Shown: positions 25,634-58,700 of the stretch, in pieces | Layout of the letters: every line of letters begins with the position of its first letter | How positions within the stretch are numbered: the first letter of the stretch is position 1 | DNA from: a virus | Lineage: Duplodnaviria; Caudoviricetes | IMG/VR virus record: IMGVR_UViG_3300029305_002190 | Coordinates: 1-64,000 of that record | Reading direction: 5' to 3' (one strand) | Length of the DNA stretch: 64,000 bases | Program-made: the position numbers and the translations under genes | Notes under the pieces: generated by a model | Told to the model about the DNA's origin: nothing | The model's input: the letters and a program-made list of their open reading frames with translations, nothing else | Database searches by the model: none

Positions 25634-25634
25634 T

Positions 25635-25661
25635 AGAGAGGGCTTCGGCTCTCTCTTATTT
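25635..25661 (+). terminator. Terminator-like hairpin with TTCG loop
   Basis: agagagggc-ttcg-gctctctct followed by tattt. Confidence 0.55.
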
Positions 25662-25691
25662 AATTTGTTTAAAAATAAAGGGGATGATAAC

Positions 25692-39578: not shown

Positions 39579-40085
39579 GTGATGAATATGATTGTTGCTG
39601 GAATTGATGGCAGCACTACAAGCACAGGGCTGGCAATTATGAGAGATGGTGAATTAATATTTCGTACACTAATTGATTTAAAAAAAGACAAAGATTCAAT
39701 GAGGCGTATTCGTCGCATGCTTTTAAAAATTTGCGAAATATTAGATGAACATAAGCCAGATGTAGTTTATATGGAAAAGAGCATTATGAAAACCAATATA
39801 GACACAACGCAAAAGCTATCAAATCTCGCAGGCGGTATGATGTTATATTGTGCTTTACATGACATTGAGTTTGTTCACCCAATGCCGTCTGAATGGCGTG
39901 CGAAAATTGGAATTGAGCAATCAAATAAAATTAAGCGTGAGACATTAAAAGAAGAAGCAATTTTGGCTGTTAAAAATGAGTATGGTATTAATGTTAATGA
40001 TGATGTGGCTGAAGCCATACTAATTTGTAGAAGCGCTTTTGATTTGCCAAAGATTGATATTTCAGAAGAGGATCTTTGGAACTGA
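39579..40085 (+). CDS. RuvC-like Holliday junction resolvase
   Basis: AGIDGSTTSTG, PDVVYME, P.EWR, DDVAEAI acidic catalytic pattern. Confidence 0.85.
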   Translation: MMNMIVAGIDGSTTSTGLAIMRDGELIFRTLIDLKKDKDSMRRIRRMLLKICEILDEHKPDVVYMEKSIMKTNIDTTQKLSNLAGGMMLYCALHDIEFVHPMPSEWRAKIGIEQSNKIKRETLKEEAILAVKNEYGINVNDDVAEAILICRSAFDLPKIDISEEDLWN

Positions 40086-40166: not shown

Positions 40167-40724
40167 ATGACTACTAAGGAACTAATTACACTAATGAGCG
40201 ACAACAGAAACAAGATGCTAAAAATTGAGCAGTTAGAAGCGGTTCTAAAAAAGAAATTAGAAGTGAAAGAATACATTAGCATCAAGTCAAAAAAGAGCCT
40301 TGTTGACGACATTGTAAACGAATGCATTCTATATGAAGATGGTATTTTTAAATTCAATGATATTGAAAAATATATTTGTTTCACCATGAGAGTTATTGAA
40401 GCTTATACAAATATTGAACTATCTGATGATTTAGAAGAAGAGTACGATCTACTGTGCGAGTCTAAGTTGCTTGAATCAATTATTAATACGTTCAAGAAGG
40501 AATATGACGACGTAAATATTCTACTTCAAATGAAGTGTGATTATGTATTAAATAACAATACACTTGCTGCACAGGTTGGTAGATTTTTCGATGGCATTTT
40601 GGAGAAGCTAGATATTGTCGTTGACACTCTGGCTAACAAAGTTGACGGTTCTGATTTTAAAAACTTACCCATTAGCAGTGAAGATATAAATAAATTAATG
40701 CAGTTCATTAATAAGCAGAAATAA
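40167..40724 (+). CDS. Hypothetical protein (possible tail assembly chaperone)
   Basis: 185 aa, helical, AAGGAG RBS, two genes before the tape measure. Confidence 0.55.
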   Translation: MTTKELITLMSDNRNKMLKIEQLEAVLKKKLEVKEYISIKSKKSLVDDIVNECILYEDGIFKFNDIEKYICFTMRVIEAYTNIELSDDLEEEYDLLCESKLLESIINTFKKEYDDVNILLQMKCDYVLNNNTLAAQVGRFFDGILEKLDIVVDTLANKVDGSDFKNLPISSEDINKLMQFINKQK

Positions 40725-40740
40725 TATAAGGAGTGATTTT

Positions 40741-41286
40741 ATGGCTGTTCAATGTTTGGACGCTGCTTTTGCTGCGATTATTAAGGACTGCCAAGCTATT
40801 GCAGTGGAGGCAGTTAAAAACGCAGCCAAAAAAACACAAAAGGATATTTTAAAAGAAGCAGATAATTATTTGCAAAAATATTATAGCAATTATACACCTA
40901 AGAGATATAAACGCACACATCAATTACAAAATGCAATTAAGCCAGTGATTGAAGACCATTCAACTGGAACAAGTACTTCAATCGAAGTTGGTGTTGAATA
41001 CGACTCTAGTGCGTTAAAAGGTGCCTATAGAAGCAATTCTCGTTGGCATCAATCTGGAGGCGCTTGGAGGCCAGTTGTTGATTATACAGATTTTAGTTCT
41101 GACAATGGTATTCCAGAACCAGAATGGATTATAGGAAATTTTTTAGAAGGAATTCACCCATGGGCACAAACAGATGGAGAGTCTACTAATAGCCTTATGG
41201 AAGAATTTTTTGATGTTCAATTAGCTGGTCGTATTGAAAAATATGTTCAGGAAGAATTATTTGCTGCTATAACTAGCAGATTGTAA
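40741..41286 (+). CDS. Putative tail completion protein
   Basis: YY.NYTP.RY.RT.QL motif; directly before the tape measure. Confidence 0.5.
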   Translation: MAVQCLDAAFAAIIKDCQAIAVEAVKNAAKKTQKDILKEADNYLQKYYSNYTPKRYKRTHQLQNAIKPVIEDHSTGTSTSIEVGVEYDSSALKGAYRSNSRWHQSGGAWRPVVDYTDFSSDNGIPEPEWIIGNFLEGIHPWAQTDGESTNSLMEEFFDVQLAGRIEKYVQEELFAAITSRL

Positions 41287-41301: not shown

Positions 41302-44300
41302 ATGGGAAAAGATGTTAAGAAGAGATTTACGGTTAGTCTTGATATTGAAACCAAAGATGTTGAAAAACAAGTCAAAGCAACTGTTGGTAATCTAAAAACA
41401 ATTCTTGCGGATCTAGGTAAAGCATCTGATAAGATGGGTTATTTTAAAGAACTTGTTGATTATATTGGTCAGATTGATACAGCACTTACTGCATTAAGAG
41501 CAAAAAATAAAAATGCTTTTGACCATATGTTTGATGGTTTGGACGCAGATTTAAAGAAAGCGATGGAGGGCATTTTTGACACAAGTAGCAAAACAATGTC
41601 TGCACTTGATGCGCTTCGTGGTAAATTAAATGATGCATCAAAAAATGGTGCAGGAGTTAAAGAATTGAGACAGATCGCCTCTGAAATCAACGATTTGTTT
41701 ACCAGTCTTGGCAGAGCAGAACCAATTGATATTGATGCACAATTTTCTGGTAGAGGTAAAACAGAAGATAGAATAAATATATTAACCGATGCATTAGATA
41801 ATTTTGCAACTGTATGGGACGGCGTTAACAACAAGGTTAAGAGTGGATTTGGCTTTGGTGGCGCTGGTGGTATTGTAGAATTTAGTGAAGAAGTGCAAAA
41901 AGAGATTGATGCTTTAGAAGATAAAATTAAGTCAATTCAAGATCTAATGACAGAATTGCAAAATGTATTCAAAATGACCAAGGCATTTAGTGATGGCAAA
42001 GATGTGTCACTAGGATTCGAGGCCACAGAAGAATCAGCAAAAAACTTACTTGAGCAGTTTAAATTATTGTCTGCTACTAGACAAAAATTTCTTGAAGATG
42101 GGGACACATCATCACCTGCTTATTATGAAAATTTAATTCAGTACACTAAAGCTGCGACTCAACTAGTTGCTTTAAACGACGAGTTAGCAAAATCCAGTAA
42201 AGGTAGCCCAAAATTTTTAGCAAATGCGCTTTCTGGTGAGTTCGTAGATGTATATGACTTTATAGAGTCTTTTGATAAAAAGTTTGTGTCCGGTATTCAA
42301 ACCTCATTAAGTAAGATTGTTTCAGATGCACAAACTGGCATAGATAAAATTAAAGCAGATGCTCTGAAAAATATGTCACCAAGCACTGCTCAAGGAGCAG
42401 GAAGACCTGATGGTGGAAATGTTCCTGACGGAAAAGTGGAAAAAAACAAAGAGTTATCAAATTCCTACGAGGAATTGTCTAAGAAGGTTAATGAATATTA
42501 TGATATCCTTCAAAAAAGAAGCAAGTTTGATGAGGATTCTGATGAGTATAGACAGTTATCTTTTAGTCTTGACGCAATATCTGACTCCATAAAGAAAATA
42601 AAGTCATTAAATATTGATGAGACAATGGAGCTTACTGATGTTTTTGGAGATTTGGAATATGAAGAATATGGTCCAGAAGAAGCATTAAAAAGAATATGTA
42701 AAATACTACAGGTAGAGATTCCTTCTGCAGCCAAAACTGCAAAGAAAAGTCTTGATGAACTTGGAGGATCCACTGATGGCGGCACAGGTGTCTCAAGTGG
42801 TGGATCTGGCGGTACTATTACAAATGTCGATTTCACGTCTCTAGAAAATACTATTAAAGCGGAAATTGCATCTGTAGCAAATAAGTTAGATAGTGTTTTT
42901 AAAGTCGAAGTTGTGAAAAATGACACATCTGATATCAAAAATGCTATTGATGGAGTTAAATCAACCATTGAAAAGATTTCTGCAGAAATTGATGGTTACA
43001 ATGCATTAAAAAAGACTAACGCTCAGCAGGCTGAAGTCAATGCAATGAAGAATAATTTAACTCAGTTGTTCAAATTTGTATCTGAGTTTAATGCAAAACA
43101 AATTGATGGAAACTACCAACACCAGGAGATTAGCGCAGCAATTTTGTCAGATGGTTCAATATCTACTGGATATGGTGAACATGGTACTGTACCGTGGGAT
43201 AGGATGGCGAGCGCCCTAGTATCCAATTTGACAAAATCTTTGATGGTGGATATCCATTCTCATCCATGGGCACAAAATGGATTCTTAGATAGATATGCCA
43301 ACGATTCATTCAGTGGTTCAAAAGGTGACCTTGGTGCATTTAGATTCTCTAAAGAACTAGGTGCACAAATGGCAGCAATGATCACTGGCAATGTCATGAG
43401 AACTCTTGATGTAAGTAAGCTGACAGACGAGCAAATGAGACAATTCGGAAAAGCACTTGCTCAGATAGAAAAAACTCAAGCAAATACTCCTGAGTACTCT
43501 AAGTACATGGAGTACAAGAATGATAAATTGTATTATCATAGTCAACCAACACTGGATGAGCAACATAAAGTTACAGAGGCTTTTGAAAGCCTGATGTACA
43601 AAGCCTTTAAGGAGATAGGTTTATCAAAAAATAAAGTCGATAAGGAAATATTTAAAAAATATGACTTAACTGATGATGCACAGCTTACAGAGTTGGCTGA
43701 ACGCCTAGTTCATTTATCTCAGTCTTCACAGAACGCACTAAGTCCAGTTGAAAGACTTTCAGAGATTATCTCTCATTTTAGTGGCGACGTAAATAGCAAA
43801 ACAGCAAAAGAAAATTTTGAGGCGTTTACAAAAGGTGAGCTGACTGCCGCAGAAGTGTTCAATAACTTAAATCGTGATGGTCATACACTGAACCAAGAAA
43901 CGCTTGATTCTTTGTATAAAATTGATAGTGCCAATGAAATACCTGCTGTTGAATCATTGTTAACACAGGTTGTAAGTATTCTAAATACAATTGAATCAAG
44001 CGTGGCAAATATCAATAATAGCACAAGACAGAGCACAAGTGGTCAATTTGATACGGCAATCAATAACATCTTAGATATTCGTGAAGGTGTAAAAAACAAG
44101 AATATTTTAGCTGGAATAAAGTCAATTTTTGATCCTCTGAATATATCAGAATATAAAAACAAAGAAGTTTTGCAAATTGCTGATGGATCAATATTGGATG
44201 CAAAAGATTACATTCAGGACTTATTTGTGCAGTCTCATTCTGATGGCTCTGTAAACTTGGATGAAATGCAGGTTGCATTAGATAAATTTTATTTAGCAAT

Positions 44301-47300
44301 GTCTAATATCCAGGATGCGATTAAGCAAGTTGATCTGTACGAAGAGAGAACAGGCAAAACTTATGTAGATAGTGACGGCGATATAGCAAAGCTAACATTA
44401 AATGATAAATATAGAGAGATAACTGATGATAATTTATTACAGCAGTTATTGTATTTACTATCTCAAGCAAAAGTTGATATTAGTAAAAGCAAAGAATTTT
44501 ATCAAAATGGGTTTGGCGACAAGCAGACAGATTATGACTATGATAATAGTCAAGTGTCTAGTGTTCTGCAGTCCATACAATCTACATTAGACTCTATTTA
44601 TGGTGTCTTACATGGTTTTACTGGTATTGAGGCAGATAATAAAAATGCACTTAAGTATAAAGAGCCTGTAGTTGATACTGGTATAAATAGAAAAGAATTC
44701 TCTGAACAAGACCTTTCTGTTCTAAATTCTATTTTACAAGTACTACATGGCATTGATGGTTACTTGTCTACAAATAAACCTGATGACGTAACTGAAAAGG
44801 TTACTCAGGATAACACTGACATTTCTGAGCTTGTAAGCTTTATTAGATCAAAGCTATCTCAGCAACTTGCTACAGAAGATACATTGCAATCAATTAAGGG
44901 AGCAATAGAGCAAATTGCAGAACTTGCGAGATCAAAAGACGAATCTAAAAAGGACGATGGCGAAGATCTTACCCAAAACCTTAATACACTAATAAGTGCT
45001 TTGACTGCCAATGTGTCTACTTTAAAAGATGTAGCTAACGGAATTGTCCAGCACCAAAAGGCACAAAAATCTGATACAAGCAAGGCAATGGCCAGGATTC
45101 AAGATCCGACTGAACAGCAAATCATTTCTGGCATAGCAAAGAATTCTGTAATAGATCTTGGCACAGAAGTGGAAATTGAAAGTTTGCAGGCACTCGCAAA
45201 TGGCTTAGTTAAGGTTGAAGGTGCTTTTAAAAATGCAAATGGTCAATGGGAAGGGTTTGCTGTTAAGGTCAATGAAGCGAATGCAGCAGTCGATCTTGCA
45301 ATTAAGAAGCAGTCTGTATTTGCAAGAGCTTTGAACAAAGCTAAAGATATTGATGAAAATACATACCAATATAACAAAGAAGAAGTCGAGGCAAGGGCGC
45401 AAAAGCATCTTGAAGAGTATGCTGCTCAGGGCAAAAATGCAACAGTGCAATTTAAGGATAGTGGTAGATATACCATTACTATCCTAGAAGAAATTGATGG
45501 CTTATCTAAGCAAATCTTCCAGACATTTGATGAGAATGATGATAAGATTGAGCGTACCACTGTCACTATGTCTAATAAACAAAAACTTAAGTTAGAAAAT
45601 TTGCAAAAGAAGCTTATAGATAATGGTCTAACTAATGGTTTAATTAGCGACAAGGACAATGAGTATAAAAATTATCAAGCTGCTGCTGATGCATTAAGTA
45701 ACATGACTAATGCGTATAGTCAGATGGATAATATTTCCGACGTAGAGATTGCAAACTGGAAACAACAAATTGCACTTGTACAGCAATTAGGCGGTCAGGT
45801 AGAGGCATTAATTAATCAAAGAAAAGCAGTAAATGATCAGAAAGTTTTTGAATCTGATAGAACAAAAAAGCTAGGTAGGTTCAATTTAGACAAGGCAAAT
45901 CTTGAAAGCAATATCGACATGACAAAAATTTCTGATAAATTAAAATCAGATATTGCTGATGCAGGAAAAGCTATAGCAAATGCAACTGATGCAGACAGTT
46001 TAAAAATTGCAATCAATAACTGGGAAGCATTACAGAATCAAATTAAAGCAACTGCTGTTCAACAAGATTTATATATTAAAAAGACAAAAGAGATTAGCGG
46101 AGGCAATACCAAAAAAGGCCAAGCATATGGAACTAGTCAGCTACAGAATTTTACTGCAAGATATAATTCGCTAAGAACTGGCGCATCTGAAGTTGGTTTG
46201 AATGAGCAGTCCACTGTTGTTGCTAATTTGGCAAATGCGTACAAACAGTTGCAGGTGGCTCAAAGCGCATTTGTTGCAGGTGAAGACAAGACTTCTGCAG
46301 AATATGCGAAAAAAGTTGAAGTTTTTAAGGCCGCACAATTAGCATGTAACAATTATGCAAGGGAATTGAATAAAGTTGTCACTGCTTCAAAGAAGTTAGA
46401 AGCAGAAAGTGTTGCGTCTGATGTATTGGATGAAGATTTTAAAGATACAATTGATGGTCGTAAGGTTGCACTTAAAGATTTTGTTCAGACGACATATGGG
46501 TCAAAGGCAGTTGTTGGAGAATTTACTAATCAATTTAATGAATTAAACTTTGTTGTTAAAAATGGTGATGGCACGTTCACTAGAATGACAGCGTCTATTA
46601 ATGAAGCAAGAACGGCCATTCACGCAACTGCTGGTGCCACAGGAGAAGTTACTAACAAGTTTAAGTCATTTATTAATGAGCTTTCAGGAAAATTCAAATC
46701 AATTAGCACATACTTTATGGCATCGTTTGGTATCGAAGAAGTATGGCAACAGTTGAGACAAGGTATTCAGTATGTAAGAGAGATAGATTCTGCTTTAACA
46801 GAACTTAAAAAGGTTACAAATGAAACTGATGCAAGCTATGATGCGTTCTTGCAATCAATGTCCAAGACTGGCAGTGTTATTGGTGCGACAGTTCAAGATT
46901 TGACAACGATGGCTGCAGATTGGGCAAGACTTGGCTATTCTATGGAAGAGGCAGGTAAGCTTGCTGAGAGTACTGCTATCTTGCTTAATGTCTCTGAATT
47001 TGATGATGCTACTGCTGCATCTGAAGCATTGATTTCTACAATGCAGGCATTCAAGTATACTGCGGATGATAGTCAACATGTTGTTGACATCCTCAATGAA
47101 GTTGGTAACAATTACGCAGTATCCTCTGACGGAATTGCAACAGCACTACAAGATTCCGCTTCTGCATTGATGGAAGCTGGCAACAACTTAGAACAGTCAG
47201 TCGCTCTAGTAGCTGCTGCCAATAAGGTTGTTCAGGATCCTAATTCTGTAGGTAGTGCATTGCGTACAATCTCTCTAAGACTCCGTGGTACTTCAGTAGA

Positions 47301-50300
47301 AGTACTAGAAGAATTGGGAGAGGAAACTGATGGAGCAGTAGAAAGCATCAGTAAGATGCAAGAAAAAATTAAGGCACTAACTGGCGTAGATATTTTAACA
47401 GATAGTGGCTCTTATAAAGAAACATATACAATTCTAAAAGAAATCGGTACAGTTTGGGAAGACATGTCTGATATTGACCAGGCAGCACTACTCGAACTCA
47501 TGGCAGGTAAAAACCGTGCAAACACTCTAGCTGCCATCCTTGGCAACATGGAAGACCTAGAGGGTGCATACAACGATGCCTTAAAAGCAGAAGGCTCAGC
47601 ATTAAAAGAAAACGAAGCATACTTGGATTCCATTCAAGGTAGAATCGACCTATTCAAAAATTCACTCCAAACAATGTGGATGAATTTTGTTGACTCCAGT
47701 GTTGTCAAATTTATTGTTGATATCGGAACCGCCTTGATTAAAACAGCAGATGCGATGGGAGTTCTATCAACTGCAGCAGGTGGATGGGCTGGTATAAAAA
47801 CCATGATTAGTTCAATAAAAACTGATTTTGAGTCTATCAGCAATGGAACTTTTAACAAAGATATTTTTGGATTTAAGCAAATGCTTGAATCTGGCGATAT
47901 TGCCAAAAAGACTATTCAAGAAGTAGATAAGGCAATTCAAGACCAAACAGATACCAAAAATAAAAATGCTAAAGCAACAAAAGAGCAAATTAATGCAGAT
48001 ATACAAAAAATTAGCACACAGCAGACTGAAAATGCTGTAGAGAGTGCTGGTGCAGTGCAAACAGGTGTAGATACTGCACAAAAAATAGCAAACGAAAAAG
48101 CCACATGGGGACAGGTTGCAGCAGAAAGAGCTCTTGCTGTTGCCAAGGGTTTAGTAAAAGGACTTCTAATAGGTGCAGTAGTATCCCTAGCAGCAACTGC
48201 GATTACAGGTGTTATTAGTGCAATTTCTGATGCTTCAAAACGCATGGATGAATTGACAGATAGTGCAATTAAGTCTGCTGAAGAAACCAAAGAAGCACAA
48301 GAAAGCATTTCTGATTACAAAGATGAAATTGCAGATCTTGGAAAAGTCCTCAATGATAATGCGTCTTCGGAGACAGAACTTTACGACGCACGTAAAAGAT
48401 TAATTGAAATTCAAAATGAATTGATTGATAAATTTGGTCTAGAAGCAAAGGGATTAGATTTAGTTACTGATGCAATTAATGGTCAAACTAATGCTTTGGA
48501 TAAATTATCTCAGAAGTCTGCCTCCGACTGGATGAAAGAAAATATGGAAGCATATAAAGAAGCCAAAAATGAAATGGCAAAAACATATGATTCCAATAGA
48601 GAACTTCTGTTATTTGGTCAATCCAATTCTTCTGTAACAGGAACATCTGGAACTTTGGCTAATGCATCTCAAGATGTAATTAATGATTATCAAGATGGAT
48701 TGAAACGGATCATCGAAGATGAATATGGTGGAACTTTATCTGAAAAAATTTCCTCTAGTGTAGACGACTTAGGAAATACAATTAGTTTTGATAATATTTA
48801 TGCTTCTTTTGAAGGTAAAACAACCGAAGAACTAGATAAGGTATTTGATGCAATTCAAACATATTTATTGGATTTTGAAAATAATTATGATGGCATTGAC
48901 CTTAGTGATGAAATTATAAGAGTTCAAAATTTAAGAAACAAGTATGTTGACGAAGATTATAAAAAATCTAGAGAGTTATATGATTCTGGTCGCCAACAGG
49001 AAGCAATATCTAATTACGCCAAAGAGTATGGGGCTATTCTAGATGCAGAAGAAGAAATTTACAATGCAAAAAATGATGAAGAAAAACTAAATGCACTTAA
49101 AGAGTATAGGACGGCACTAGAGGCAGCAAAAAATGCAAAAACTGATGACCCACACATGGATGACTATTTTGACAAGATTGGCAAAAAATTTGATGAACAA
49201 GAGTATGAATTAAAAGTCAAATTGGACGAAGATGGTCTAAAGTCTAATCTGGAAGAAATAATTAACAGTGGAGGAGAAAGTGGCCTATCTGTTTTGGATG
49301 ATGTTGCAATCCAAGATATGGTTAATAGAGGACTAAATGTCGAGGGTGCAACTGATTCTAGTGGCAAATACACACAGGAACAAATCAGTGGATTGATTGC
49401 GTTACAATCAGAAGCAGATAAGGCTGGTATTAGCGTTGATAGCCTAATTAGCATTTTAACTAAACTTGGATTGGTTGCAGGCAAGCCTATAGAACAATCT
49501 GCTGAAAGTGTCAAGGCAGTTGCTGAAACATACTCAACACTTCGTGAGTCTGTTGATGGCTATAACGAAGTCCTCACACGAACCTCCGAAATCGTCTCTG
49601 ACAATACCGAAGTAACCCAAGAATATAAAGACTCCTTGAAAAGTCTTGGATTTTCCGAAGAAGAACTTGCAGATTGTTTTGATGAAAACAATAAGTTAAT
49701 TGTTAAGAACGCCGCTTTGCTAAATAAGCTTGTCAAACAAAAGAAACAAGATAAAACAGCAACCGTTCAGCAAGCCAAGGCATATGGACAGCTTCAGTAT
49801 AAAACTACTATTTCTCAAATTGGTCAACTTGTCAATAGAATGGCTACCGAAATTAAGGCCACAGGTTATGTATCTGCTGCTACATTGGATAACATTAGTG
49901 TGTTGCGTGAACAGTTAGATGTTATTAAACAAACCATTCAGCAATACGCTTTGCTCGAATTAAGCCTCAGCGATGCAGCTCAGGCTTATAGCGATTTTGA
50001 AGCAGCAAAACAAAGAGATGCACAACTAACTTATGGCGATTCAATGGTAGAAATGTTGGATGTTATCAATGAAGGTTTTAAGACTGGGCAGGTAGGCACC
50101 GAGGCGTTTCAGTTTGCTGTTAAGGCGATTGTTCCTCCTGAGTTTTATGAGAACATTGACGATGCTCAAGATAGAATGCAAGCAATTCATGATTATGTTG
50201 ATAAGCATCCTTTGTTTGCAGATTATTTCACCATTGACGAGGGTGAAATCTCCATCACAATGGACAACATCAAGGCATTTATTAAAGATTGTCAAGATGT

Positions 50301-53300
50301 TGGTCTTTTCACTGGAACTGATCCTTATGACTTTGATTTAAATTCTGGTTTTATTAATGACTCTGAAAAAGAACAGATTAGCGAATTAAATAACGAATTA
50401 GTTAAATTCCAGGATACATATAACGGCACTGTTGATCTCGTTAATAGAAAACGAATTGATATAACCGAAGAAAACATTGAGACCGTTCGTGGTTGGGGAG
50501 GCAGTATGGCGGAGGTCAACGTAGGTGACTACATGACCGTTGCCTCACAGACATATCAAGACGGTAAGGCAGCAATTGTTGTTACTCCAATTCTTCCGAA
50601 TGGAGAATTAATGAAACAGGATGAGTTGGATGCGTATATTGACGATGTCATTGCTAAAACTAATGCCGGTAGTGGTAATTACGCTGATTATGACACGAAA
50701 GGCATCTTAATGGGTGTGTTTGGAGATGCAGACACATGGGAGGCTAATTTAGCGGCATCCGATGAGTTTGTAAATCGTGTCCATGAGATCCATGAAATTA
50801 TTAATTCGTTTGGTGATTCTGTAACATTAAAAGACTTTGCAGATGAACTTGGTATGACCGAAGCGGCAGCTCTTGCAATGCTTACAGAGTTTGAAAAGTA
50901 TGATGCAAGCTGGGGAGACCTTATAGCAAGACTTACCACAACTGGATTAGATCGAGAAATAAACGATGCGACAGATGCTTTAGAAAAAGCAATAACCACA
51001 CAAGAAGAATTCATAAAGAGTGGTCAACCATTATATGATGAAAATGGAGAAATAACATCTGGATATAAGGCTGTTGTTGATGCGGTCAATAAGGCTCGTG
51101 ACGGATTAGATAATGCTACACAGGCAGCGATAAACAACGCACAGACATATACTCAAGTTGAATCAATATTAAAGGGTATGTCTGGAGAAATGAAATACAC
51201 TCAAGAGCAAGCAGACGCACTAGCTAGATCACTTGGGTTAATTGACGAGAATGGCCACATCACAATAAATACCGAAACTGGTGCTCTTGAATTAACCAAT
51301 GAGCAAGTTGATATTTTAAATCAAAAATTAACTGGGTTAGAAGAGCCAACCATGCTGGATATACAGCTTGCATATGATGATATTTATGGTCAAGTAGAAG
51401 AATTAAAGTCATACTTAGCCGACCCAGATAATTATGATGGAACTATTTTGGCGGATCTTGAGCTTACAGATTCAAGTGAAGCAGAAGTGCAAGCAGAGCT
51501 TGATAGATTGAATTCTATTTTAGGAGTTCTTGAATTGCATTATAATCTTTCCCCAAGTGTAGAGCAAAATGATGGCAACTTAGAAAAGCTTGGTAATTGG
51601 GAAACCAATGGCATCAATATAACAATTACTGGTGATAGTTCTAGTTTTGATGCGGCGGTAGCAGAAGTCAATGCTGTTGAGATGGAAGATAAACCAGTTA
51701 ATATTACAGCAGATCCAACAGAAGCAAATGCTAATATTGATTCTGTTGATAATAATAATATTGCAGACAAAAAGCCAGTGATTGCAATGCAAGGCGTTTC
51801 TGCTGCATTAACAAATATTTATTCTATTGATAGTGCGCTTGATGAATTACCAAACTATAAATCTGTAACTGTTGATGTTATATATAGGCAAACCGGATCT
51901 CCACCTAGTGGGGGTGTTGGTGTTGATGGAAATTTCCATGTGTCTGGTGATGCATTTGCAGGGGGTACCATTGGCGCACCAAGAAATGAAACAGCATTGA
52001 TGGGAGAACTTGGACCAGAAATATTAGTCAGGGATGGTAGATGGACTACTGTTGGAGAGAATGGCGCAGAATTTACACAAGTTAAAAAGGGCGACATAAT
52101 TTTTAATCATAAACAGTCTGAGCAACTACTTAAAAATGGCTATGTAACTGGCAGAGGAAAAGCATATGCAGGTGGTACAGCTTATGGTTTTGGTATTTTT
52201 GATTCATATGTTGGTGATGACGATGCTTTCAAAAATGGCTCCGATAAGTGGGTTAATCCTGGAGAAAATGCTTGGAGTGATGCCGCAGACGATGTTTCTG
52301 ATGCTGCAGATGACGCAGAACAAATTGTAGATTTCATTGAAATGAAGTTAGAAGAAATCGAAGCTATTATTGAAAAAACTACAACTAAGATTGCTAATTT
52401 CCTCGATGACACTACAAGTATTAAAAGCAAAGACGAACTCTATGACGAACTAATAAAAGCGGAAAAAGATAAGTCCGAAGCTTATTTAAAAGCTGCTCAA
52501 AAGTATAACGTAGAAGCTGCGGCCGCTCTATCTGGTGTGCCACAGCAATATCAAAAAATGGCCCGTAATGGTGCTATTGCCATTAAAGATTTCATTGGAG
52601 AAGACCAAGTTGAAATAGCAGAGGCAATCCAAGAATATAGAGATTGGGCAGCAAAAGCAGATGAAGCGGAAAACGGACATCTAGAAGCTATTGCTGCTAT
52701 TTCTGCGCATAGAGTTGAACAACTTGAAGATATTGCTACAGATTTTGAAAATATCGTTAGTATCTCTAAGTCTCATTCTGATTTGTTGCAGGCAGAGATG
52801 GATTTAATTGAAGAATCTGGAAATAGACTATCAGAGAGTTATTATGAAGAGCTTAAGAAGCATTCTCAGAAACAACTAGATGATATGCAAAATGAGCGTG
52901 CAGCGCTACAAAAGATTTTAGACGATTCTGTTGCTGCAGGTGATGTTGTTATTGGCTCTGATGACTGGTATTCTATGCTTGAGACTATCTATGAGGTCGA
53001 TCAAGAAATTGTTGATTGTAAGATTAGCTTAGAGGAATTCCAAAATGCGATAAATGAGCTATACTGGGATAACTTTGATAAGCTGATTGATGAAATCGAT
53101 AATGTTAACTCTGAGTTATCTAATCTATATGATCTTGTTTCCGACACTGACAATATAGTGGACGATACTGGAAATTGGACTGATGACGGCATTACTGCTC
53201 TTGGTTTACTTGCGCAGCAAATGGAGAATGCACAGTTCAAGTCTCAGCAATACGGTGAAGCAATTGAGAAACTTAAGAAAGATTATGCCGATGGTTTATA

Positions 53301-54492
53301 TAGTACTGATGAGTATAATGAAAAATTAGCAGAACTAACAGATAGTCAATATGATGCAATTAAGTCTTACGAAGACGCAAAAGACGCTATTGTTGATCTA
53401 AATAAAACTCGTGCAGAAGCTGTCAAAAAATATATGCAAGAAGAAATTGACAAGTATGGAGAACTTATCGAAAAGAAAAAAGAATCTCTGAACGCAGACA
53501 AAGAGGCACGTGATTTTGAAAAGTCTGTGCAAGAATCAAACAAAAACATAAAAGACATTGAAAGACAAATAGCTGCTCTCCAAGGAAATACATCTTCTAG
53601 CGCCATGGCACAAAGAAAGCGTCTTGAGGCTGAATTGCTCAAAGCTCGTGAGGAACTAGATGATCTGTATTACGATCACAGTGTTGAGAAACAACAAGAG
53701 GCACTTGATAAAGAACTTGAGGATTACACTAAAAACAAAGAAGATCAGATGGATGCTCTTGATGAGTATTTGGAAAAAGAAGAACAGGTAATTGCTGATA
53801 GTTTTGATCTAATAGCTGAAAATACAAAAAATATTGCCGACGTTCTAATCGGTATTTCTCAGGAGTATGGCGTATCGATTTCCGATGCTGTTGCGGCACC
53901 TTGGATTAACGGGACAAATGCTATTGGAACATATCAAGAACAACTAAACACTTCTGTAAGTGCTACGACAAAAAATCTTGAGACTCTAAAGAAACAGTTA
54001 GAAGACCTGCAGACTCAGGCGGATAAGACTGCTAATAGCATTGTTAACGCAACCCATTCTACAATTGTTGAAACCAATGATGGTCATCAGACTAGTATTA
54101 AGGGTTATGCCAAGGGTAGCAAGAGTGTTGAGTATGACCAGTGGGCACTTATTGACGAACTTGGTGACGAATTACAAATTACACCAGACGGATCGGGTCG
54201 TTTGGCTTATATCAAGAAAGGTACTGGAATTTTAAACAACACTTTAACTGAGAGATTAATGGATCTAGCTATGGACCCCACTAGTATGATTGAAAATAGC
54301 AGACCTGTTATTGGAACTCCTGGCATTACAACAACCAATAATACAATTGAGATAGATGCCAGCGTCGGTACATTACTCCACGTAGAACATCTTGATGGCA
54401 ACAATCCTTCCGAAGTTGCTAAACTTATTGATAAGGCTTGGGAAAAGAAGATGCAAACACTTAATAACAGTATTAAAAAGTTTACAAGATAA
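41302..54492 (+). CDS. Tape measure protein (4396 aa)
   Basis: TP901-type core (IDSALTELKKV…WARLGY…NEVGNN…G.ALRTIS.RL…AGK.RAN) at ~46750-47650; long helical regions; FAGG…GELGPE and GYAKG…DELG.E motifs; precedes Dit and Tal. Confidence 0.9.
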   Translation: MGKDVKKRFTVSLDIETKDVEKQVKATVGNLKTILADLGKASDKMGYFKELVDYIGQIDTALTALRAKNKNAFDHMFDGLDADLKKAMEGIFDTSSKTMSALDALRGKLNDASKNGAGVKELRQIASEINDLFTSLGRAEPIDIDAQFSGRGKTEDRINILTDALDNFATVWDGVNNKVKSGFGFGGAGGIVEFSEEVQKEIDALEDKIKSIQDLMTELQNVFKMTKAFSDGKDVSLGFEATEESAKNLLEQFKLLSATRQKFLEDGDTSSPAYYENLIQYTKAATQLVALNDELAKSSKGSPKFLANALSGEFVDVYDFIESFDKKFVSGIQTSLSKIVSDAQTGIDKIKADALKNMSPSTAQGAGRPDGGNVPDGKVEKNKELSNSYEELSKKVNEYYDILQKRSKFDEDSDEYRQLSFSLDAISDSIKKIKSLNIDETMELTDVFGDLEYEEYGPEEALKRICKILQVEIPSAAKTAKKSLDELGGSTDGGTGVSSGGSGGTITNVDFTSLENTIKAEIASVANKLDSVFKVEVVKNDTSDIKNAIDGVKSTIEKISAEIDGYNALKKTNAQQAEVNAMKNNLTQLFKFVSEFNAKQIDGNYQHQEISAAILSDGSISTGYGEHGTVPWDRMASALVSNLTKSLMVDIHSHPWAQNGFLDRYANDSFSGSKGDLGAFRFSKELGAQMAAMITGNVMRTLDVSKLTDEQMRQFGKALAQIEKTQANTPEYSKYMEYKNDKLYYHSQPTLDEQHKVTEAFESLMYKAFKEIGLSKNKVDKEIFKKYDLTDDAQLTELAERLVHLSQSSQNALSPVERLSEIISHFSGDVNSKTAKENFEAFTKGELTAAEVFNNLNRDGHTLNQETLDSLYKIDSANEIPAVESLLTQVVSILNTIESSVANINNSTRQSTSGQFDTAINNILDIREGVKNKNILAGIKSIFDPLNISEYKNKEVLQIADGSILDAKDYIQDLFVQSHSDGSVNLDEMQVALDKFYLAMSNIQDAIKQVDLYEERTGKTYVDSDGDIAKLTLNDKYREITDDNLLQQLLYLLSQAKVDISKSKEFYQNGFGDKQTDYDYDNSQVSSVLQSIQSTLDSIYGVLHGFTGIEADNKNALKYKEPVVDTGINRKEFSEQDLSVLNSILQVLHGIDGYLSTNKPDDVTEKVTQDNTDISELVSFIRSKLSQQLATEDTLQSIKGAIEQIAELARSKDESKKDDGEDLTQNLNTLISALTANVSTLKDVANGIVQHQKAQKSDTSKAMARIQDPTEQQIISGIAKNSVIDLGTEVEIESLQALANGLVKVEGAFKNANGQWEGFAVKVNEANAAVDLAIKKQSVFARALNKAKDIDENTYQYNKEEVEARAQKHLEEYAAQGKNATVQFKDSGRYTITILEEIDGLSKQIFQTFDENDDKIERTTVTMSNKQKLKLENLQKKLIDNGLTNGLISDKDNEYKNYQAAADALSNMTNAYSQMDNISDVEIANWKQQIALVQQLGGQVEALINQRKAVNDQKVFESDRTKKLGRFNLDKANLESNIDMTKISDKLKSDIADAGKAIANATDADSLKIAINNWEALQNQIKATAVQQDLYIKKTKEISGGNTKKGQAYGTSQLQNFTARYNSLRTGASEVGLNEQSTVVANLANAYKQLQVAQSAFVAGEDKTSAEYAKKVEVFKAAQLACNNYARELNKVVTASKKLEAESVASDVLDEDFKDTIDGRKVALKDFVQTTYGSKAVVGEFTNQFNELNFVVKNGDGTFTRMTASINEARTAIHATAGATGEVTNKFKSFINELSGKFKSISTYFMASFGIEEVWQQLRQGIQYVREIDSALTELKKVTNETDASYDAFLQSMSKTGSVIGATVQDLTTMAADWARLGYSMEEAGKLAESTAILLNVSEFDDATAASEALISTMQAFKYTADDSQHVVDILNEVGNNYAVSSDGIATALQDSASALMEAGNNLEQSVALVAAANKVVQDPNSVGSALRTISLRLRGTSVEVLEELGEETDGAVESISKMQEKIKALTGVDILTDSGSYKETYTILKEIGTVWEDMSDIDQAALLELMAGKNRANTLAAILGNMEDLEGAYNDALKAEGSALKENEAYLDSIQGRIDLFKNSLQTMWMNFVDSSVVKFIVDIGTALIKTADAMGVLSTAAGGWAGIKTMISSIKTDFESISNGTFNKDIFGFKQMLESGDIAKKTIQEVDKAIQDQTDTKNKNAKATKEQINADIQKISTQQTENAVESAGAVQTGVDTAQKIANEKATWGQVAAERALAVAKGLVKGLLIGAVVSLAATAITGVISAISDASKRMDELTDSAIKSAEETKEAQESISDYKDEIADLGKVLNDNASSETELYDARKRLIEIQNELIDKFGLEAKGLDLVTDAINGQTNALDKLSQKSASDWMKENMEAYKEAKNEMAKTYDSNRELLLFGQSNSSVTGTSGTLANASQDVINDYQDGLKRIIEDEYGGTLSEKISSSVDDLGNTISFDNIYASFEGKTTEELDKVFDAIQTYLLDFENNYDGIDLSDEIIRVQNLRNKYVDEDYKKSRELYDSGRQQEAISNYAKEYGAILDAEEEIYNAKNDEEKLNALKEYRTALEAAKNAKTDDPHMDDYFDKIGKKFDEQEYELKVKLDEDGLKSNLEEIINSGGESGLSVLDDVAIQDMVNRGLNVEGATDSSGKYTQEQISGLIALQSEADKAGISVDSLISILTKLGLVAGKPIEQSAESVKAVAETYSTLRESVDGYNEVLTRTSEIVSDNTEVTQEYKDSLKSLGFSEEELADCFDENNKLIVKNAALLNKLVKQKKQDKTATVQQAKAYGQLQYKTTISQIGQLVNRMATEIKATGYVSAATLDNISVLREQLDVIKQTIQQYALLELSLSDAAQAYSDFEAAKQRDAQLTYGDSMVEMLDVINEGFKTGQVGTEAFQFAVKAIVPPEFYENIDDAQDRMQAIHDYVDKHPLFADYFTIDEGEISITMDNIKAFIKDCQDVGLFTGTDPYDFDLNSGFINDSEKEQISELNNELVKFQDTYNGTVDLVNRKRIDITEENIETVRGWGGSMAEVNVGDYMTVASQTYQDGKAAIVVTPILPNGELMKQDELDAYIDDVIAKTNAGSGNYADYDTKGILMGVFGDADTWEANLAASDEFVNRVHEIHEIINSFGDSVTLKDFADELGMTEAAALAMLTEFEKYDASWGDLIARLTTTGLDREINDATDALEKAITTQEEFIKSGQPLYDENGEITSGYKAVVDAVNKARDGLDNATQAAINNAQTYTQVESILKGMSGEMKYTQEQADALARSLGLIDENGHITINTETGALELTNEQVDILNQKLTGLEEPTMLDIQLAYDDIYGQVEELKSYLADPDNYDGTILADLELTDSSEAEVQAELDRLNSILGVLELHYNLSPSVEQNDGNLEKLGNWETNGINITITGDSSSFDAAVAEVNAVEMEDKPVNITADPTEANANIDSVDNNNIADKKPVIAMQGVSAALTNIYSIDSALDELPNYKSVTVDVIYRQTGSPPSGGVGVDGNFHVSGDAFAGGTIGAPRNETALMGELGPEILVRDGRWTTVGENGAEFTQVKKGDIIFNHKQSEQLLKNGYVTGRGKAYAGGTAYGFGIFDSYVGDDDAFKNGSDKWVNPGENAWSDAADDVSDAADDAEQIVDFIEMKLEEIEAIIEKTTTKIANFLDDTTSIKSKDELYDELIKAEKDKSEAYLKAAQKYNVEAAAALSGVPQQYQKMARNGAIAIKDFIGEDQVEIAEAIQEYRDWAAKADEAENGHLEAIAAISAHRVEQLEDIATDFENIVSISKSHSDLLQAEMDLIEESGNRLSESYYEELKKHSQKQLDDMQNERAALQKILDDSVAAGDVVIGSDDWYSMLETIYEVDQEIVDCKISLEEFQNAINELYWDNFDKLIDEIDNVNSELSNLYDLVSDTDNIVDDTGNWTDDGITALGLLAQQMENAQFKSQQYGEAIEKLKKDYADGLYSTDEYNEKLAELTDSQYDAIKSYEDAKDAIVDLNKTRAEAVKKYMQEEIDKYGELIEKKKESLNADKEARDFEKSVQESNKNIKDIERQIAALQGNTSSSAMAQRKRLEAELLKAREELDDLYYDHSVEKQQEALDKELEDYTKNKEDQMDALDEYLEKEEQVIADSFDLIAENTKNIADVLIGISQEYGVSISDAVAAPWINGTNAIGTYQEQLNTSVSATTKNLETLKKQLEDLQTQADKTANSIVNATHSTIVETNDGHQTSIKGYAKGSKSVEYDQWALIDELGDELQITPDGSGRLAYIKKGTGILNNTLTERLMDLAMDPTSMIENSRPVIGTPGITTTNNTIEIDASVGTLLHVEHLDGNNPSEVAKLIDKAWEKKMQTLNNSIKKFTR

Positions 54493-54549: not shown

Positions 54550-55692
54550 ATGTCAGTTTATTTACCCATTATTTCTTATAAAGGCAAAACAAATTATGAC
54601 TTTCAATTAACGGTAGCGCACTTTGACGCTGACTCAGGAGAATTTGACAGTTATCAAAATATGGAGCCAATTTATACTGAGAATTACGACGGGTCTTTGC
54701 GATATGATTTTGGAGCGAGATATACAGACGTGGCTCGTCCAGTAGTTACTTTTGTAGATCCTGATGGAGATAATATCTCTCCCTATAAAATTAAAGCAGT
54801 TTTACGTTGGCTAACTGGTGCAAAAGATGTATCATTTATGGACATTTGCGACGAAACAGGAGAGAGCATGTGCTCTTATATTGGCCGTTTTACCGATGTA
54901 AAATTATATAAAATTGATGCTCGTGTTGTGGGTATAACGGCTATGTTTACTAGTACTTCTCCTTTTGCGTATTCTCCAATTAAAGAGGCCAGGTTTACTG
55001 TTACTCAAGAAGGAACGGATTTTATAATCGATTGCGATAGCGATGATGAATATAATGTTCTACATCCTACGGTAGAATTTACAAACACTCAAGCAAAAGA
55101 CGAAACAAATCCAGACAAGATTATGTTGTCTCTGTACAACGAAACGATGAATAATGAAACAACTTTTAAAAATTTAAGCACTGGTGAAACTGTCACTATA
55201 AATAGTTCTCTTGCTGTCTACTCAAATAATACTGCACGTATTTTTAATGATGATTACAATTTTGAGTTCCCAGTTTTGAGTTGCGGTAGCAACAATTTTA
55301 CAGCAATTGGCGAAGGAGAATTAGTTATTCGTTTTAGATACCCTATGAAACTAGCAGACGGCCTACTAGACGCTCAACAGCTTAATAATAGCCCTGTCGT
55401 TTATGTTGAAGAAACTACTGTATTTATTAAAGGCGACCTTACTCAAAATCCACCTAACAACACCTCCATTAAAGTAAATGGTACAACACTAACTATTCGT
55501 GGAGATATGAAGTCTGTCAAGGTGCCTGGGTTTAGCGAGGTTGAGAATGGAAATCTATTTATTGATTACGGCAATGTCAATTGTGCATTTGACAGTCTAT
55601 ATGCAATTGTCGAAAATGGCGAACTCTTTATTGGTAAGGATCTTGATAAAGTCGATCCTGACTACAATTTTCCAGGAAGCAAAAATAAATAA
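54550..55692 (+). CDS. Distal tail protein (Dit)
   Basis: Follows the tape measure; LRWLTG, SPFAYS, GETVTINS, FPVL..G.N motifs; extra C-terminal ~110 aa. Confidence 0.7.
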   Translation: MSVYLPIISYKGKTNYDFQLTVAHFDADSGEFDSYQNMEPIYTENYDGSLRYDFGARYTDVARPVVTFVDPDGDNISPYKIKAVLRWLTGAKDVSFMDICDETGESMCSYIGRFTDVKLYKIDARVVGITAMFTSTSPFAYSPIKEARFTVTQEGTDFIIDCDSDDEYNVLHPTVEFTNTQAKDETNPDKIMLSLYNETMNNETTFKNLSTGETVTINSSLAVYSNNTARIFNDDYNFEFPVLSCGSNNFTAIGEGELVIRFRYPMKLADGLLDAQQLNNSPVVYVEETTVFIKGDLTQNPPNNTSIKVNGTTLTIRGDMKSVKVPGFSEVENGNLFIDYGNVNCAFDSLYAIVENGELFIGKDLDKVDPDYNFPGSKNK

Positions 55693-55718
55693 AGAAAAAT
55701 TAATATAGAAAGGAGGTA

Positions 55719-58700
55719 ATGCTTATGAGACTTCCCAAAAATATATTTAATAACACCTATACCAAGCCTAAGATTTTTCTGTGTGAAACTGATAAACAAA
55801 AAATGGGCGTATTAAACACAACAGACACGCATGTATCTCTAAAGTTCAAAGCATACAGCGAATTAACTTTCAATATAGATCGTACTTATATTGACACACT
55901 AACTGGCGATAAACAAACTCACCTGTTATATGATCGAATTGAACATCCTCGTCTGATTTTGCTTGATAATATTGGCTACTTCCAGATTCAAGCACCAGAC
56001 ATGTCTACGGATAGCTTTAAGGAAAGCAAAGCCATTGTTGCCTATTCATCGGAATATGCTTTGTCCCAAAAGTATATTGTTGATCTACATGTAAATACAG
56101 GTAAAGTTGACTCTGTTGAAGTTATTTATTCAGAAGAAACTGGCAGTGCGCTAGAACCAGTCGTTTTCTATAACCAAGCAAACCCAAGATTGAGTCTACT
56201 AGATCTAGCACTTGAAGGTGTGTACGGATGGAAAATCGGCCACATTGATGACTCTCTAAAAACATTATCCCGTTCTTTTGATATTGATAGGCAATCTGTG
56301 TATGATTTCTTGATGAATGACGTATGTAAAAAATTCAATTGTTATATTATTTTTGATACATTAAAAAATGAAATCAACATATACGCAGAGGCGAAAATCG
56401 CCAAATTTATTGGTGACGGCAGAACAAAAAAGTTTACAATATCTCCTTCATTTTATAAGATAAATACCGTATCTATTGATGGCTACAAAACAACTCAATG
56501 GGAATATGATAAAAAAACTGGTGCGCTGACATTTACAAAAGCACCTGAGAATTTATCCAATATTGAAGTTGTCGATGGTGGCCTAACGGAGTGGGAAACA
56601 GACGTGTTTGTCACTTTTGAAAATTTAGCAAAAGAAATGCAAGTGTCATATAATGCTGATGATATTAAGACCCAATTAACCGTTACTTATGGTGATGATC
56701 TAGATATTAGAGAAATCAATATGGGTTCTCCATACATAACCGACTTGTCTTATTACTATACGGTTGATTGGATGGGTCAGGATCTATATGATGCTTACAC
56801 AGCATACCTAAAGAAATCTCAAACATCTCAAACAAATTACACTAAGAACTCACAAGAGATGCTTGAAATTTCTGATCATCAGTATTTTGAAGAGCACAGA
56901 CTTTCTATGGCATATTCTACGATTACTGTTGATAGTAATACTATTGGTACTTATTATGTAAAAGATTCTTCTAACGGCGGATATTTCTTCAAAGAAGTTA
57001 CTTTGCCAGATGACTATAAGGCTTATACCACATACTATCAATTTGATGGCGTAAAGCTAACATCTGAAAAGGTAAATGATTTGTACATGGCCATTCGTGA
57101 TAATTTTAAAACTGGCTCTGTAGAAAAAATCAATGAACTTGCTGATGCATTTGAGTTTATGAATGACAGTGATAGTTATGGCATAGATTATTTGGCTAGG
57201 TATTTAAACAACTCTAATGCGCCAGAAAAAAAGAAATCTTATGTTATGAACTTCTTAAAAGAAATGTGGGAACAAGTTGGTAGAACTCCTCTAAAGTTTT
57301 TATATCAAGAAACATTTAAGATTCTACAGAGTACAAATATTGATTGGGCACAAGAACATATTGATCCTGATGGCAATAAAACATATCATGAAAATTATCC
57401 TTGGTATTATGCAATTTTATTGTTCTTGGAGTCTATAGATAGTGCCATCGCTCTAAGAGATCAGCAGACTGATAAACTGCAACAGGCATATGACAAGCTA
57501 CAAGCAGAAAACATTGAAATTAGCAACGGCCTTTTAATGGAGAATAATTTCACAGAAGCACAGCTGATTAGATTAAGTGCATTCATAAAAGAAGATGAGC
57601 TTCATGTTGAAGACATAATCGAAACTGAATATGATACCCTAGAAGATTCTTTTAAGGTCAAACAATACGCAATGGAAGCTGGCAGAATTGAATTGCACAA
57701 AAGAAGTCAACCACAATTGCAATTTTCTATGACAATGGCAAACATTTATGCCATTCCAGAATTTGAGCCAATCATTCATCAATTCCAACTTGGCAAAGTA
57801 ATTAAAGTCGGACTTCGTTTAGAGACTAAAATTGTAGAGTTTGTTGGAGATGGTGCAAGAAAACAATTTGTAATTGCTCCACCATTCTACAATGTTAAGA
57901 CTGTATCTATTGATGGCGTTGAAACAACTAACTGGCAGTATGATAACATAACTGGTCTTTTAATGCTAAAATCATATAGCGCACCAAAAAGAGGCACTCG
58001 TATCAAAGTTATTGGTGAAAATAACTATATTAAACAGTCTAGATTGCTACAAGTTGATATGGGATTAGATGATCTTTCAGATTTTCAAGCACAGTTTGGT
58101 GAACTAACAGATCTTCGTAATCAATCTGATATTCATGCAGACTTACTATCACAAGCTATTCAAGCTGGTAAATCAGTAGCTAGTTCACAAGACAATTGGA
58201 ACACTGGTGTGGATATGGCTATTAGCACAGATATTAAAATTCAACAGGGTCTGCTGGATTCTGCGACTGTGCTAAAATCAATGGATGGTACTCAGGGAAC
58301 AGAAATCGATAAATATGGTATACATCTTAGAAAAGTTAATCCAGATACAGGTGAAATAGATCCAAAACAAGGCTGGATTACAAATAATATGATGGCGTAC
58401 ACTGATAACAATTGGTTATCATCTAAGAGCGTATTTGGTGAATATCAAATCAAAGGAGAGTCGTCTCCAAGATGGGGTTTGCTTGCAGACGCTTGTATTG
58501 CTTCTTATATTGAAGGTTCAACGTTGATTGGTGGTAGACTTAGTATTGGTGAGCGATCAGATGGATCATATAACTTCTCTGTTGATTACGATGGTAACAT
58601 GATAGCTCAGAGTGCAGATGTTGTTGGTAAGATTACTGCAGATAGTGGCTCTATTCGTGGTGACCTTGAAATATCTGGTGCATTAAAACATACGAATGGC

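Follow-up and report, generated by a model that had tools for sequence, protein, structure and literature searches.

The tape measure protein (TMP) of an uncultured tailed phage (Duplodnaviria; Caudoviricetes) carries, far ahead of its conserved core, a domain of 226 residues that belongs to the JAB superfamily, as judged from its predicted structure and its active-site residues. The phage is known from IMG/VR record IMGVR_UViG_3300029305_002190, of which positions 1 to 64,000, the whole stretch analysed, are referred to below as the window. The TMP gene occupies 41302..54492 of the window on the + strand and encodes 4,396 amino acids (aa) in an uninterrupted frame, as seen from the list of open reading frames (ORFs) and the translation. 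The JAB/MPN-fold domain covers aa 580-805 (43039..43716, + strand) and was delimited with an AlphaFold2 (AF2) model, VIA-align and Foldseek. That this domain is a catalytically competent JAB/MPN zinc hydrolase, carried as cargo in the virion and ejected into the infected cell, is a proposal for which we consider the case evenly poised.

A preliminary description of the stretch had claimed a JAB/MPN-like metalloprotease motif inside the TMP at 43100..43420, of the form E...HxH...S..D with a long spacer. As functions it had suggested a virion-delivered deconjugase in counter-defence or a self-processing protease for maturation of the TMP, both of which are weighed below. The pattern is in frame within the 4,396-aa ORF: its QEISAAILSDG segment begins at aa 608 (nucleotide (nt) 43123), its AAMITG segment finishes at aa 696 (nt 43389), and the JAMM-type residues are E609, H652-S-H654 and S673-K-G-D676. 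The proposed span holds the catalytic core, but the whole domain is larger and extends beyond it on both sides. Glu609, the putative general base of the JAMM motif, is encoded at 43126..43128 and His652-Ser-His654, the putative zinc ligands, at 43255..43263, both recognised from conservation, the model and hhalign; Ser671-Gly-Ser673-Lys-Gly-Asp676, which corresponds to the JAMM SxxD element in an altered register, lies at 43312..43329 and is recognised from conservation and the model (all on the + strand). H652-S-H654 is the sole HxH of the entire TMP, whose 35 His residues would give 0.28 such triplets by composition. The loose pattern E-x(20-60)-HxH-x(5-25)-SxxD has a single match in the TMP (595-676) and was found in 60 of 2,000 shuffles of the protein (3%), so that the motif by itself barely exceeds chance; it is taken as genuine because of the conserved residues and the fold.

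Modelling of aa 580-805 by AF2 with an alignment of 47 segments gave a mean predicted local distance difference test score (pLDDT) of 94.7 and a predicted template modelling score (pTM) of 0.89, and the model has the MPN-like fold by all three structural approaches. Foldseek searches against the PDB returned a best E-value of 1e-2, which is weak, and the matches were nearly all JAMM/MPN proteins (AMSH, CSN5, Rpn11, BRCC36, Sst2, PfJAMM1, EMC8) or cytidine deaminases; the JAB domain is assigned to the deaminase-like fold in an excerpt of PMC3239186. When the model was compared by VIA-align with 48,161 representative PDB chains, all but a few of the 30 best matches were JAB/MPN proteins. PfJAMM1 (5ld9) came first with Z 10.2 over 113 aligned residues (root-mean-square deviation 2.8 A), followed by Cap3 (9ild, Z 8.3), DSY2949 (2kks, 8.2), Rpn11 (8.1), the Bil deubiquitinase BilC (8tyy, 7.9), RadC (2qlc, 7.6), AfJAMM (1r5x, 7.3) and BubCD (9ea5, 6.5), on a scale where Z 7-8 is common for models with no true match and differences below 1 are ties. 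The Z of PfJAMM1 lies above that range and exceeds the next match by 1.9, and the matches are consistent in family.

The candidate active-site residues sit at defined places in the model, numbered from its first residue. Glu609 stands immediately ahead of strand 31-36, His652-Ser-His654 closes strand 68-74 and Asp676 opens helix 97-106, placements that we take to be those of the JAMM residues in JAMM structures. A small hairpin occupies the 18-residue spacer between HxH and Ser. The model also predicts an inserted helix/hairpin/helix sub-domain of about 75 aa inside the JAB fold (aa 704-779; 43411..43638, + strand), seen in the structural alignments too. Its elements (H130-147, E157-160, E163-166 and H172-192) come ahead of the fold's final strand and helix, and alignments to JAB proteins of 129-190 aa accordingly cover model residues 1-221 with just 105-140 residues aligned.

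Conservation singles out the same residues. Alignment A1, made of 47 homologous segments with 24-76% identity to the query, has only five invariant columns: E609, H652, H654, D676 and G696. Counted over 85 distinct domain copies, wherever the residue is present, Glu609 is kept in 83 of 83 and His652, His654 and Asp676 each in 82 of 82, so that the predicted fold and the unchanged E, H, H and D together support the JAB/MPN-like domain that had been proposed from the letters. The residue between the two His is Ser in 68 copies and Thr in 14. Ser671 is present in 78 of 82 copies, and position 673 is Ser in 60, Ala in 18 and another residue in four. Two intact JAB copies occur in each of two homologs (P0002 and P0071), while P0079 and P0086 each have an additional degenerate copy. 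The degenerate copy of P0079 (aa 505-616) retains the Glu and HSHP and reads HSHP-x6-SVAD, which is the canonical JAMM spacing; it links the long-spacer form to the classical JAMM motif.

The domain was found only as part of very large proteins. A word-indexed search over proteins of 2,417-7,693 aa recovered 63 giant homologs of 2,455-6,286 aa, with 30-99% identity across aa 560-800; PF10145 is present in those for which Pfam domains had been precomputed, and most are encoded on contigs of up to 172 kb. A phmmer search over 1.84 billion cluster representatives gave only 43 matches, 41 of which are proteins of at least 1,673 aa, the other two (771 aa and 187 aa) aligning as truncated pieces. 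A profile search of proteins of 116-415 aa gave two matches, both fragments on contigs shorter than 1.6 kb. From the phmmer and profile searches, the JAB domain thus has no detectable stand-alone form. It was absent from 50,697 GenBank phage records (tblastn, E <= 1e-5 and E <= 5), turned up in a single species genome out of 185,579, a metagenome-assembled genome of an uncultured Clostridium that has it on a 3-kb contig, and occurred in IMG/VR at two loci on two contigs. Of the N-terminal extension, the JAB module alone still aligns in P0091, P0093 and P0094, the most distant of the TMPs compared. The phages concerned are uncultured and make up a small clade; in them the domain is confined to giant TMPs, whose cores resemble those of SPbeta-like Firmicute phages.

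By its core match and its gene neighbours, the 4,396-aa protein is a TP901-type tape measure protein, and the identity and the extension of some 1,800 aa given in the preliminary description hold. PF10145 matches aa 1854-2069 (E 5e-21, Pfam), TIGR01760 matches aa 1819-2132 (E 1.8e-29, NCBIfam) and phrog_4211, annotated as tail length tape measure protein, matches aa 1740-4170 (E 1.6e-85, PHROGs); the core as delimited by TIGR01760 and PF10145 (aa 1819-2132) lies at 46756..47697 on the + strand. The closest relatives of the core found by tblastn are those of Brevibacillus phage Sundance (35% identity), Enterocloster phages (29-32%) and SPbeta YomI (27.6%). About 1,800 residues precede the core here, compared with about 700 in the Sundance TMP, and the sole strongly hydrophobic stretch of the protein is at aa 2277-2311. 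Just 5' of the TMP gene are two small ORFs of 185 and 181 aa (40167..41286, + strand), one of which matches phrog_7299, a virion structural protein (E 1.4e-6); their position suggests that they encode tail assembly chaperones. Downstream lie genes for a DUF6558 tail protein of 380 aa and a minor tail protein of 1,402 aa (54550..59927, + strand; PF20195 and PF20753), among which phrog_6211, a minor tail protein family, is matched at E 8.8e-26.

The placement of the domain within the JAB superfamily leans towards the toxin-type JABs (DUF4329 and Toxin-JAB1), as far as sequence-derived signals allow. In a language-model search of the ESM Atlas, which serves as a lead only, the nearest named families were DUF4329 (0.91, five of 30 matches) and Toxin-JAB1 (0.90), with three unnamed viral clusters ranking above DUF4329. 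Tox-JAB-2/DUF4329 (PF14220) and Toxin-JAB1 (PF15659) are C-terminal toxin domains of Rhs, type VI and type VII secretion system polymorphic toxins, and both have, like the TMP domain, a long spacer from HxH to Asp. An excerpt of Zhang et al. 2012 (PMC3482391) gives the Tox-JAB-2/DUF4329 motif as E, H[ST]H, S and D, and reports the family from polymorphic toxins, caudoviruses and giant viruses. The TMP domain shares with DUF4329 this motif and a long variable spacer before an FS..D element, the spacer ahead of FSxxD being likewise variable in an alignment of 41 DUF4329 sequences. It would also share with both toxin families, on the function proposed here, a large carrier protein by which it is delivered into a target bacterium. 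DUF4329 domains differ from it in having a C-terminal position in the toxin, the TMP domain being internal, and in being without the sub-domain of about 75 aa. Among the genes beside the TMP no immunity gene was identified, the downstream genes being tail proteins, although no search specific for immunity genes was made.

Foldseek against BFVD gave seven matches at E <= 1e-3, and the top 50 include giant-virus proteins, in keeping with the viral occurrence of Tox-JAB-2 in the same excerpt (PMC3482391). They also include six "minor capsid proteins" of uncultured phages (A0A8S5PLY6, A0A8S5SGM8, A0A8S5QJR6, A0A8S5P082, A0A8S5N7P5 and A0A8S5TVZ9), the best at E 1.8e-4, and phage proteins annotated as metalloprotease, peptidase, protease, JAB domain, RadC and deubiquitination hydrolase. 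Minimal prokaryotic JAMM/JAB proteins (PfJAMM1 5ld9, AfJAMM 1r5x and Prok-JAB, PF14464) share the predicted fold of the TMP domain as well as the E...H[ST]HP...S..D logic, and hhalign can align the HSHP strand of Prok-JAB with it. In the Prok-JAB proteins retrieved, however, 7 residues separate HxH from Ser, e.g. HSHPATPSRPSEED, whereas H654 and S673 are 18 residues apart in the TMP domain, which alone has the insert; and the minimal prokaryotic proteins stand alone beside E1 or ubiquitin-like genes, whereas the TMP domain is embedded in a structural protein of 4,396 aa.

On the cargo proposal, the domain would be a globular unit set into the helical N-terminal extension, with about 1,200 residues between it and the TP901-type core, and would enter the virion as part of the few TMP copies assembled there. 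At infection it would leave through the tail along with the TMP. We infer that it binds metal through His652, His654 and Asp676 and is catalytically active, Glu609 serving as the general base, so that a zinc-activated water could attack an amide bond; the domain would then hydrolyse a peptide or isopeptide bond of a host target during or just after DNA entry. Retained catalysis is argued for by the invariance of exactly the four JAMM residues at a divergence reaching 24% identity. Ejection as cargo is favoured because the domain is restricted to a component of the virion that leaves the particle at infection, because it is N-terminal and away from wall-directed modules, because it is sometimes duplicated, and because of its likeness to toxin-type JABs on other vehicles, namely Rhs proteins, with minor capsid proteins as a lead. 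According to an excerpt of PMC5576092, MuF (minor capsid) proteins carry ejected toxin domains. A toxin-like action, by analogy with Tox-JAB domains, may be one form that the ejected enzyme takes.

Several observations weigh against this proposal or against parts of it. Profile libraries do not recognise the domain: a Pfam search with the whole TMP and with two segments gave no JAB-family match for the segments at E <= 10, no JAB family was among the best 25 of 47 Pfam families for 47 members, and PHROGs and NCBIfam did not detect it. The JAB-family models without a match in these Pfam results include PF01398, PF14464, PF04002 and PF14220, and PDB sequences searched by phmmer and by profile gave no match. 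The alignments made by hhalign from A1 are of low probability: with 27 Firmicute Prok-JAB sequences, taken from 27 of 31 loci, only the HSHP strand was aligned (E 1.4e-3, probability 17.5%), and with 41 non-redundant DUF4329 sequences 74 columns were aligned at a non-significant E 4.3e-3 and probability 8%. Comparisons with one Prok-JAB protein (9%), three DUF4329 sequences (2%) and the RadC-like YeeS of E. coli (0.3%) were also non-significant. The alignment with DUF4329 is colinear, with helix 1, Glu, HxH and the FS..D element in register; in these pairs, E609 falls on the conserved Glu of DUF4329 and HSH on HSHP of Prok-JAB and HTHG of DUF4329. Given the non-recognition by profiles and the low probabilities, the clade assignment draws on weak signals. 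The canonical JAMM Ser and spacing (HxH-x7-SxxD) do not occur in the TMP domain, Ala takes the Ser position in 18 of 82 copies, and the His-to-Asp spacing is non-canonical. A MuF plus JAB architecture for the BFVD minor capsid matches is a lead drawn from their annotation. Finally, the proposal assumes that this part of the TMP is ejected and that a domain of about 25 kDa can fold inside the tail lumen or close to it.

Among the alternatives, the one that survives best is that the domain serves in self-processing or tail maturation, cutting the TMP itself, for instance at a Gly-rich linker, or another tail-assembly protein; we regard it as possible, if on the doubtful side. JAMM enzymes characteristically cleave after Gly-Gly, a habit that would suit such a role. 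Upstream of the module lies a low-complexity Gly/Ser-rich linker at about aa 487-505 (42760..42816, + strand), with GGSTDGG at aa 488-494, and a stretch of this kind, variable in length and sequence, precedes the module in most of 31 aligned homologs, only a few being without it. In addition, three globular domains of 226 aa would fit poorly in the tail lumen, which would favour their removal. There is a precedent in the lambdoid pair TAPK and TAPI, an excerpt of PMC1779556 predicting that TAPK (JAB plus NlpC/P60) acts on the ubiquitin-like TAPI. As with the TMP domain, the JAB of lambda gpK/TAPK is encoded in a siphovirus tail module and, in the same excerpt (PMC1779556), is thought to act in tail assembly; in Pfam, lambda K has a partial Prok-JAB match (23.3 bits) with NLPC_P60, and lambda I has PF06805. 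TAPK is nevertheless a small separate protein, fused to NlpC/P60 and encoded beside a ubiquitin-like gene, whereas the present JAB is internal to the TMP.

Between the linker and the domain, a helical preface of about 70 aa (aa 506-579; ITNVDFTSLENTIK...; 42817..43038, + strand) is conserved in most of the 31 aligned homologs and leads into helix 1 of the JAB domain. In an AF2 model of aa 455-805, the linker is disordered (pLDDT 30-43) and the preface is a low-confidence helix (pLDDT 42-66), one long helix continuing into domain helix 1. A docked cis-substrate finds no support, as this model places neither linker nor preface on the JAB domain, which speaks against self-processing. The region ahead of the linker is unconserved and not a beta-grasp, and Gly-rich linkers are generic. 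No ubiquitin-like, E1, E2, TAPI-like (PF06805) or NlpC/P60 (PF00877) gene was found at E <= 1e-4 among the 92 ORFs of the 109-kb record, which is an estimated 69% complete, and PF00877 and PF06805 are absent from the TMP in Pfam. A TAPK-type context, an NlpC/P60 fusion with a neighbouring PF06805, was thus not found in the record. None of its 42 ORFs of up to 160 aa resembles a ubiquitin-like protein or has a C-terminus of that type. Three of them have GG in the last 8 residues: one encodes a dUTPase, another is YqeY-like, and the third, of 89 aa, has no family match.

The cargo proposal has a more specific form, in which the domain is a counter-defence deconjugase that removes ubiquitin-like or CD-NTase conjugates of type II CBASS (Cap2) or of Bil/Bub-type systems. 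This is unlikely in our estimation. Its structural neighbours do include Cap3, the Bil deubiquitinase and BubCD, and PfJAMM1, which matched best, has an entry title that calls it a deubiquitinating enzyme homolog. Bil systems ubiquitinate the phage central tail fibre according to an excerpt of PMC10557695, so that a phage tail protein is a documented object of such modification, and removal of conjugates would suit an enzyme that is present from the first moment of infection. The fold, however, is common to all JABs, and matches with Z within 1 of each other are ties (RadC scores 7.6), so that the likeness to Cap3, BilC and BubCD does not discriminate within the superfamily. These three proteins are host-encoded in operons with E1, E2 and ubiquitin-like genes, whereas the TMP is surrounded by structural genes only, and they have no sequence-level link to the TMP domain, which shows no relationship to Cap3-type or Prok-JAB profiles past the HSHP strand. 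Weak sequence and language-model affinities favour toxin-type JABs over defence-associated deubiquitinases. The toxin-type clades, nearest by language-model features, are argued in an excerpt of PMC3482391 to be without the ubiquitin-tail tunnel residues, and it is added there that they might not be peptidases. Carried furthest, the TMP would be an injection vehicle that brings in 3-6 copies of a JAB isopeptidase along with the DNA; these would remove the ubiquitin-like or CD-NTase conjugates by which type II CBASS or Bil-type immunity is primed, a scenario we hold to be improbable; a variant in which a toxin-type JAB with non-peptidase chemistry is used for host takeover stands level with it.

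A third alternative, distinctly less probable, is that the domain is a cell-wall isopeptidase that cuts the side-chain amide cross-links of peptidoglycan at penetration, as SLT and M23 domains of other TMPs would. Peptidoglycan cross-links are side-chain amides and may be regarded as formally isopeptide-like. The related TMP SPbeta YomI contains peptidoglycan hydrolases, SLT at aa 1425-1533 and Peptidase_M23 at aa 1579-1674, and it resembles the present protein in its TP901-type core and in carrying catalytic domains within a very long TMP. Relatives of this TMP also have wall-binding modules: LysM at aa 4151-4199 of the 4,330-aa P0060, CW_7 at aa 3939-3966 of the 4,120-aa P0055, and, in an open frame of 6,362 aa, PG_binding_1 about 5,000 residues C-terminal to the JAB module. 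All of these modules are C-terminal to the core, as are both hydrolases of YomI, near the end that would face the tail tip, whereas the JAB-fold domain is N-terminal, preceding the core by about 1,200 aa and separated from the wall-binding domains by about 3,500 aa. A tail lysozyme (PF18013) with LysM is already encoded by a separate gene (25563-26597), and the phage thus owns a dedicated wall-degrading protein besides the TMP. We know of no JAB enzyme that cuts peptidoglycan. That the domain is a non-catalytic MPN scaffold or the product of a chance motif is hardly probable at all: many eukaryotic MPN domains are inactive (Rpn8, CSN6 and EMC8 are among the structural matches), the motif arises in 3% of shuffles and Ser673 is variable, but four of the five invariant columns of the 47 sequences are the JAMM residues, a pattern unexpected for a scaffold.

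Other features of the phage deserve mention in their own right. The 109-kb viral contig has 37% G+C and encodes a DNA polymerase III alpha subunit, an NAD-dependent ligase, a ribonucleotide reductase and ThyX. Many homologous TMPs (P0065-P0095 and others; 1,700-3,400 aa) break off within the PF10145 core at a small number of positions that recur, corresponding to TMP aa 1877, 1884, 1934-1935, 1977, 1984 and 1996, and share short tails such as ...WARLNI, ...KVTCLLIQ and ...LYSNI. Judged by these shared tails, the TMP gene of relatives looks to be split by conserved insertions (group I introns or homing-endonuclease cassettes) into which the frame reads through. In the 64-kb window itself, Rfam found no family, and hence no intron, at the gathering score. 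Four homing-endonuclease-type genes are present, of the GIY-YIG plus NUMOD3, DUF7487/phrog_12131, HNH and LAGLIDADG types; three lie inside the structural module (6163-6987, 27534-28598 and 33136-34158 of the window) and one at 87893-88681 of the 109-kb record. The HNH gene (33136-34158) lies between ORFs of 1,489 aa (28623-33092) and 1,046 aa (34282-37422), which match phrog_14959 (2,494 positions) at 475-1167 and 1738-2000, and the two may be a single structural gene split by a mobile element. A gene for a RuvC-like Holliday junction resolvase (39579-40085) is found between the tail genes and the chaperone-position ORFs upstream of the TMP.

At the end of the structural module, a large serine recombinase with Resolvase, Recombinase and Zn_ribbon_recom domains (62088-64000, - strand, reaching 64028) suggests a temperate lifestyle, which contrasts with the occurrence of the family on one short contig among the species genomes searched. 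Further along the record, in the replication and metabolism arm, are genes for a Thg1-like tRNA-His guanylyltransferase (87039-87887), an RNA-ligase-like protein (90433-91818) and a class-V aminotransferase (96312-97451). A nicotinamide mononucleotide (NMN) transporter gene (PF04973; 80824-81516) is found near a gene with cytidylyltransferase-like and AAA_28 domains (82005-83174), which we take to resemble NadR. Together they could form a module for NAD salvage or reconstitution, of the kind that phages use against NAD-depleting defences.

TMPs are known to carry peptidoglycan hydrolases, and JABs occur in tail-assembly proteins, in toxins and in bacterial ubiquitin-like immunity; a JAB-fold domain inside a TMP unites TMP-borne enzymes with these themes. 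Among the titles and opening lines of abstracts on tape measure proteins with JAB, JAMM or MPN, no JAB-in-TMP architecture is described, and in one published passage the JAB/MPN protein is encoded as a separate gene. The architecture is new but composed of known parts, a sequence-orphan JAB clade fixed within giant TMPs, and structure prediction recovers here a domain clade that Pfam, PHROGs and NCBIfam miss. Papers that contain the term DUF4329 show no apparent biochemical assay of it in their titles and abstract openings, and the TMP domain might provide the Tox-JAB/DUF4329 group, which is biochemically uncharacterised, with a member that is amenable to experiment. The virion of these phages probably carries an enzyme. 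If active, it would be compact and highly constrained, would be in the host before any phage gene is expressed, and would give a direct handle on what virions deliver other than DNA; and if it should be a deconjugase delivered by the TMP, it would represent a virion-borne, pre-expression counter-defence of an undescribed kind.

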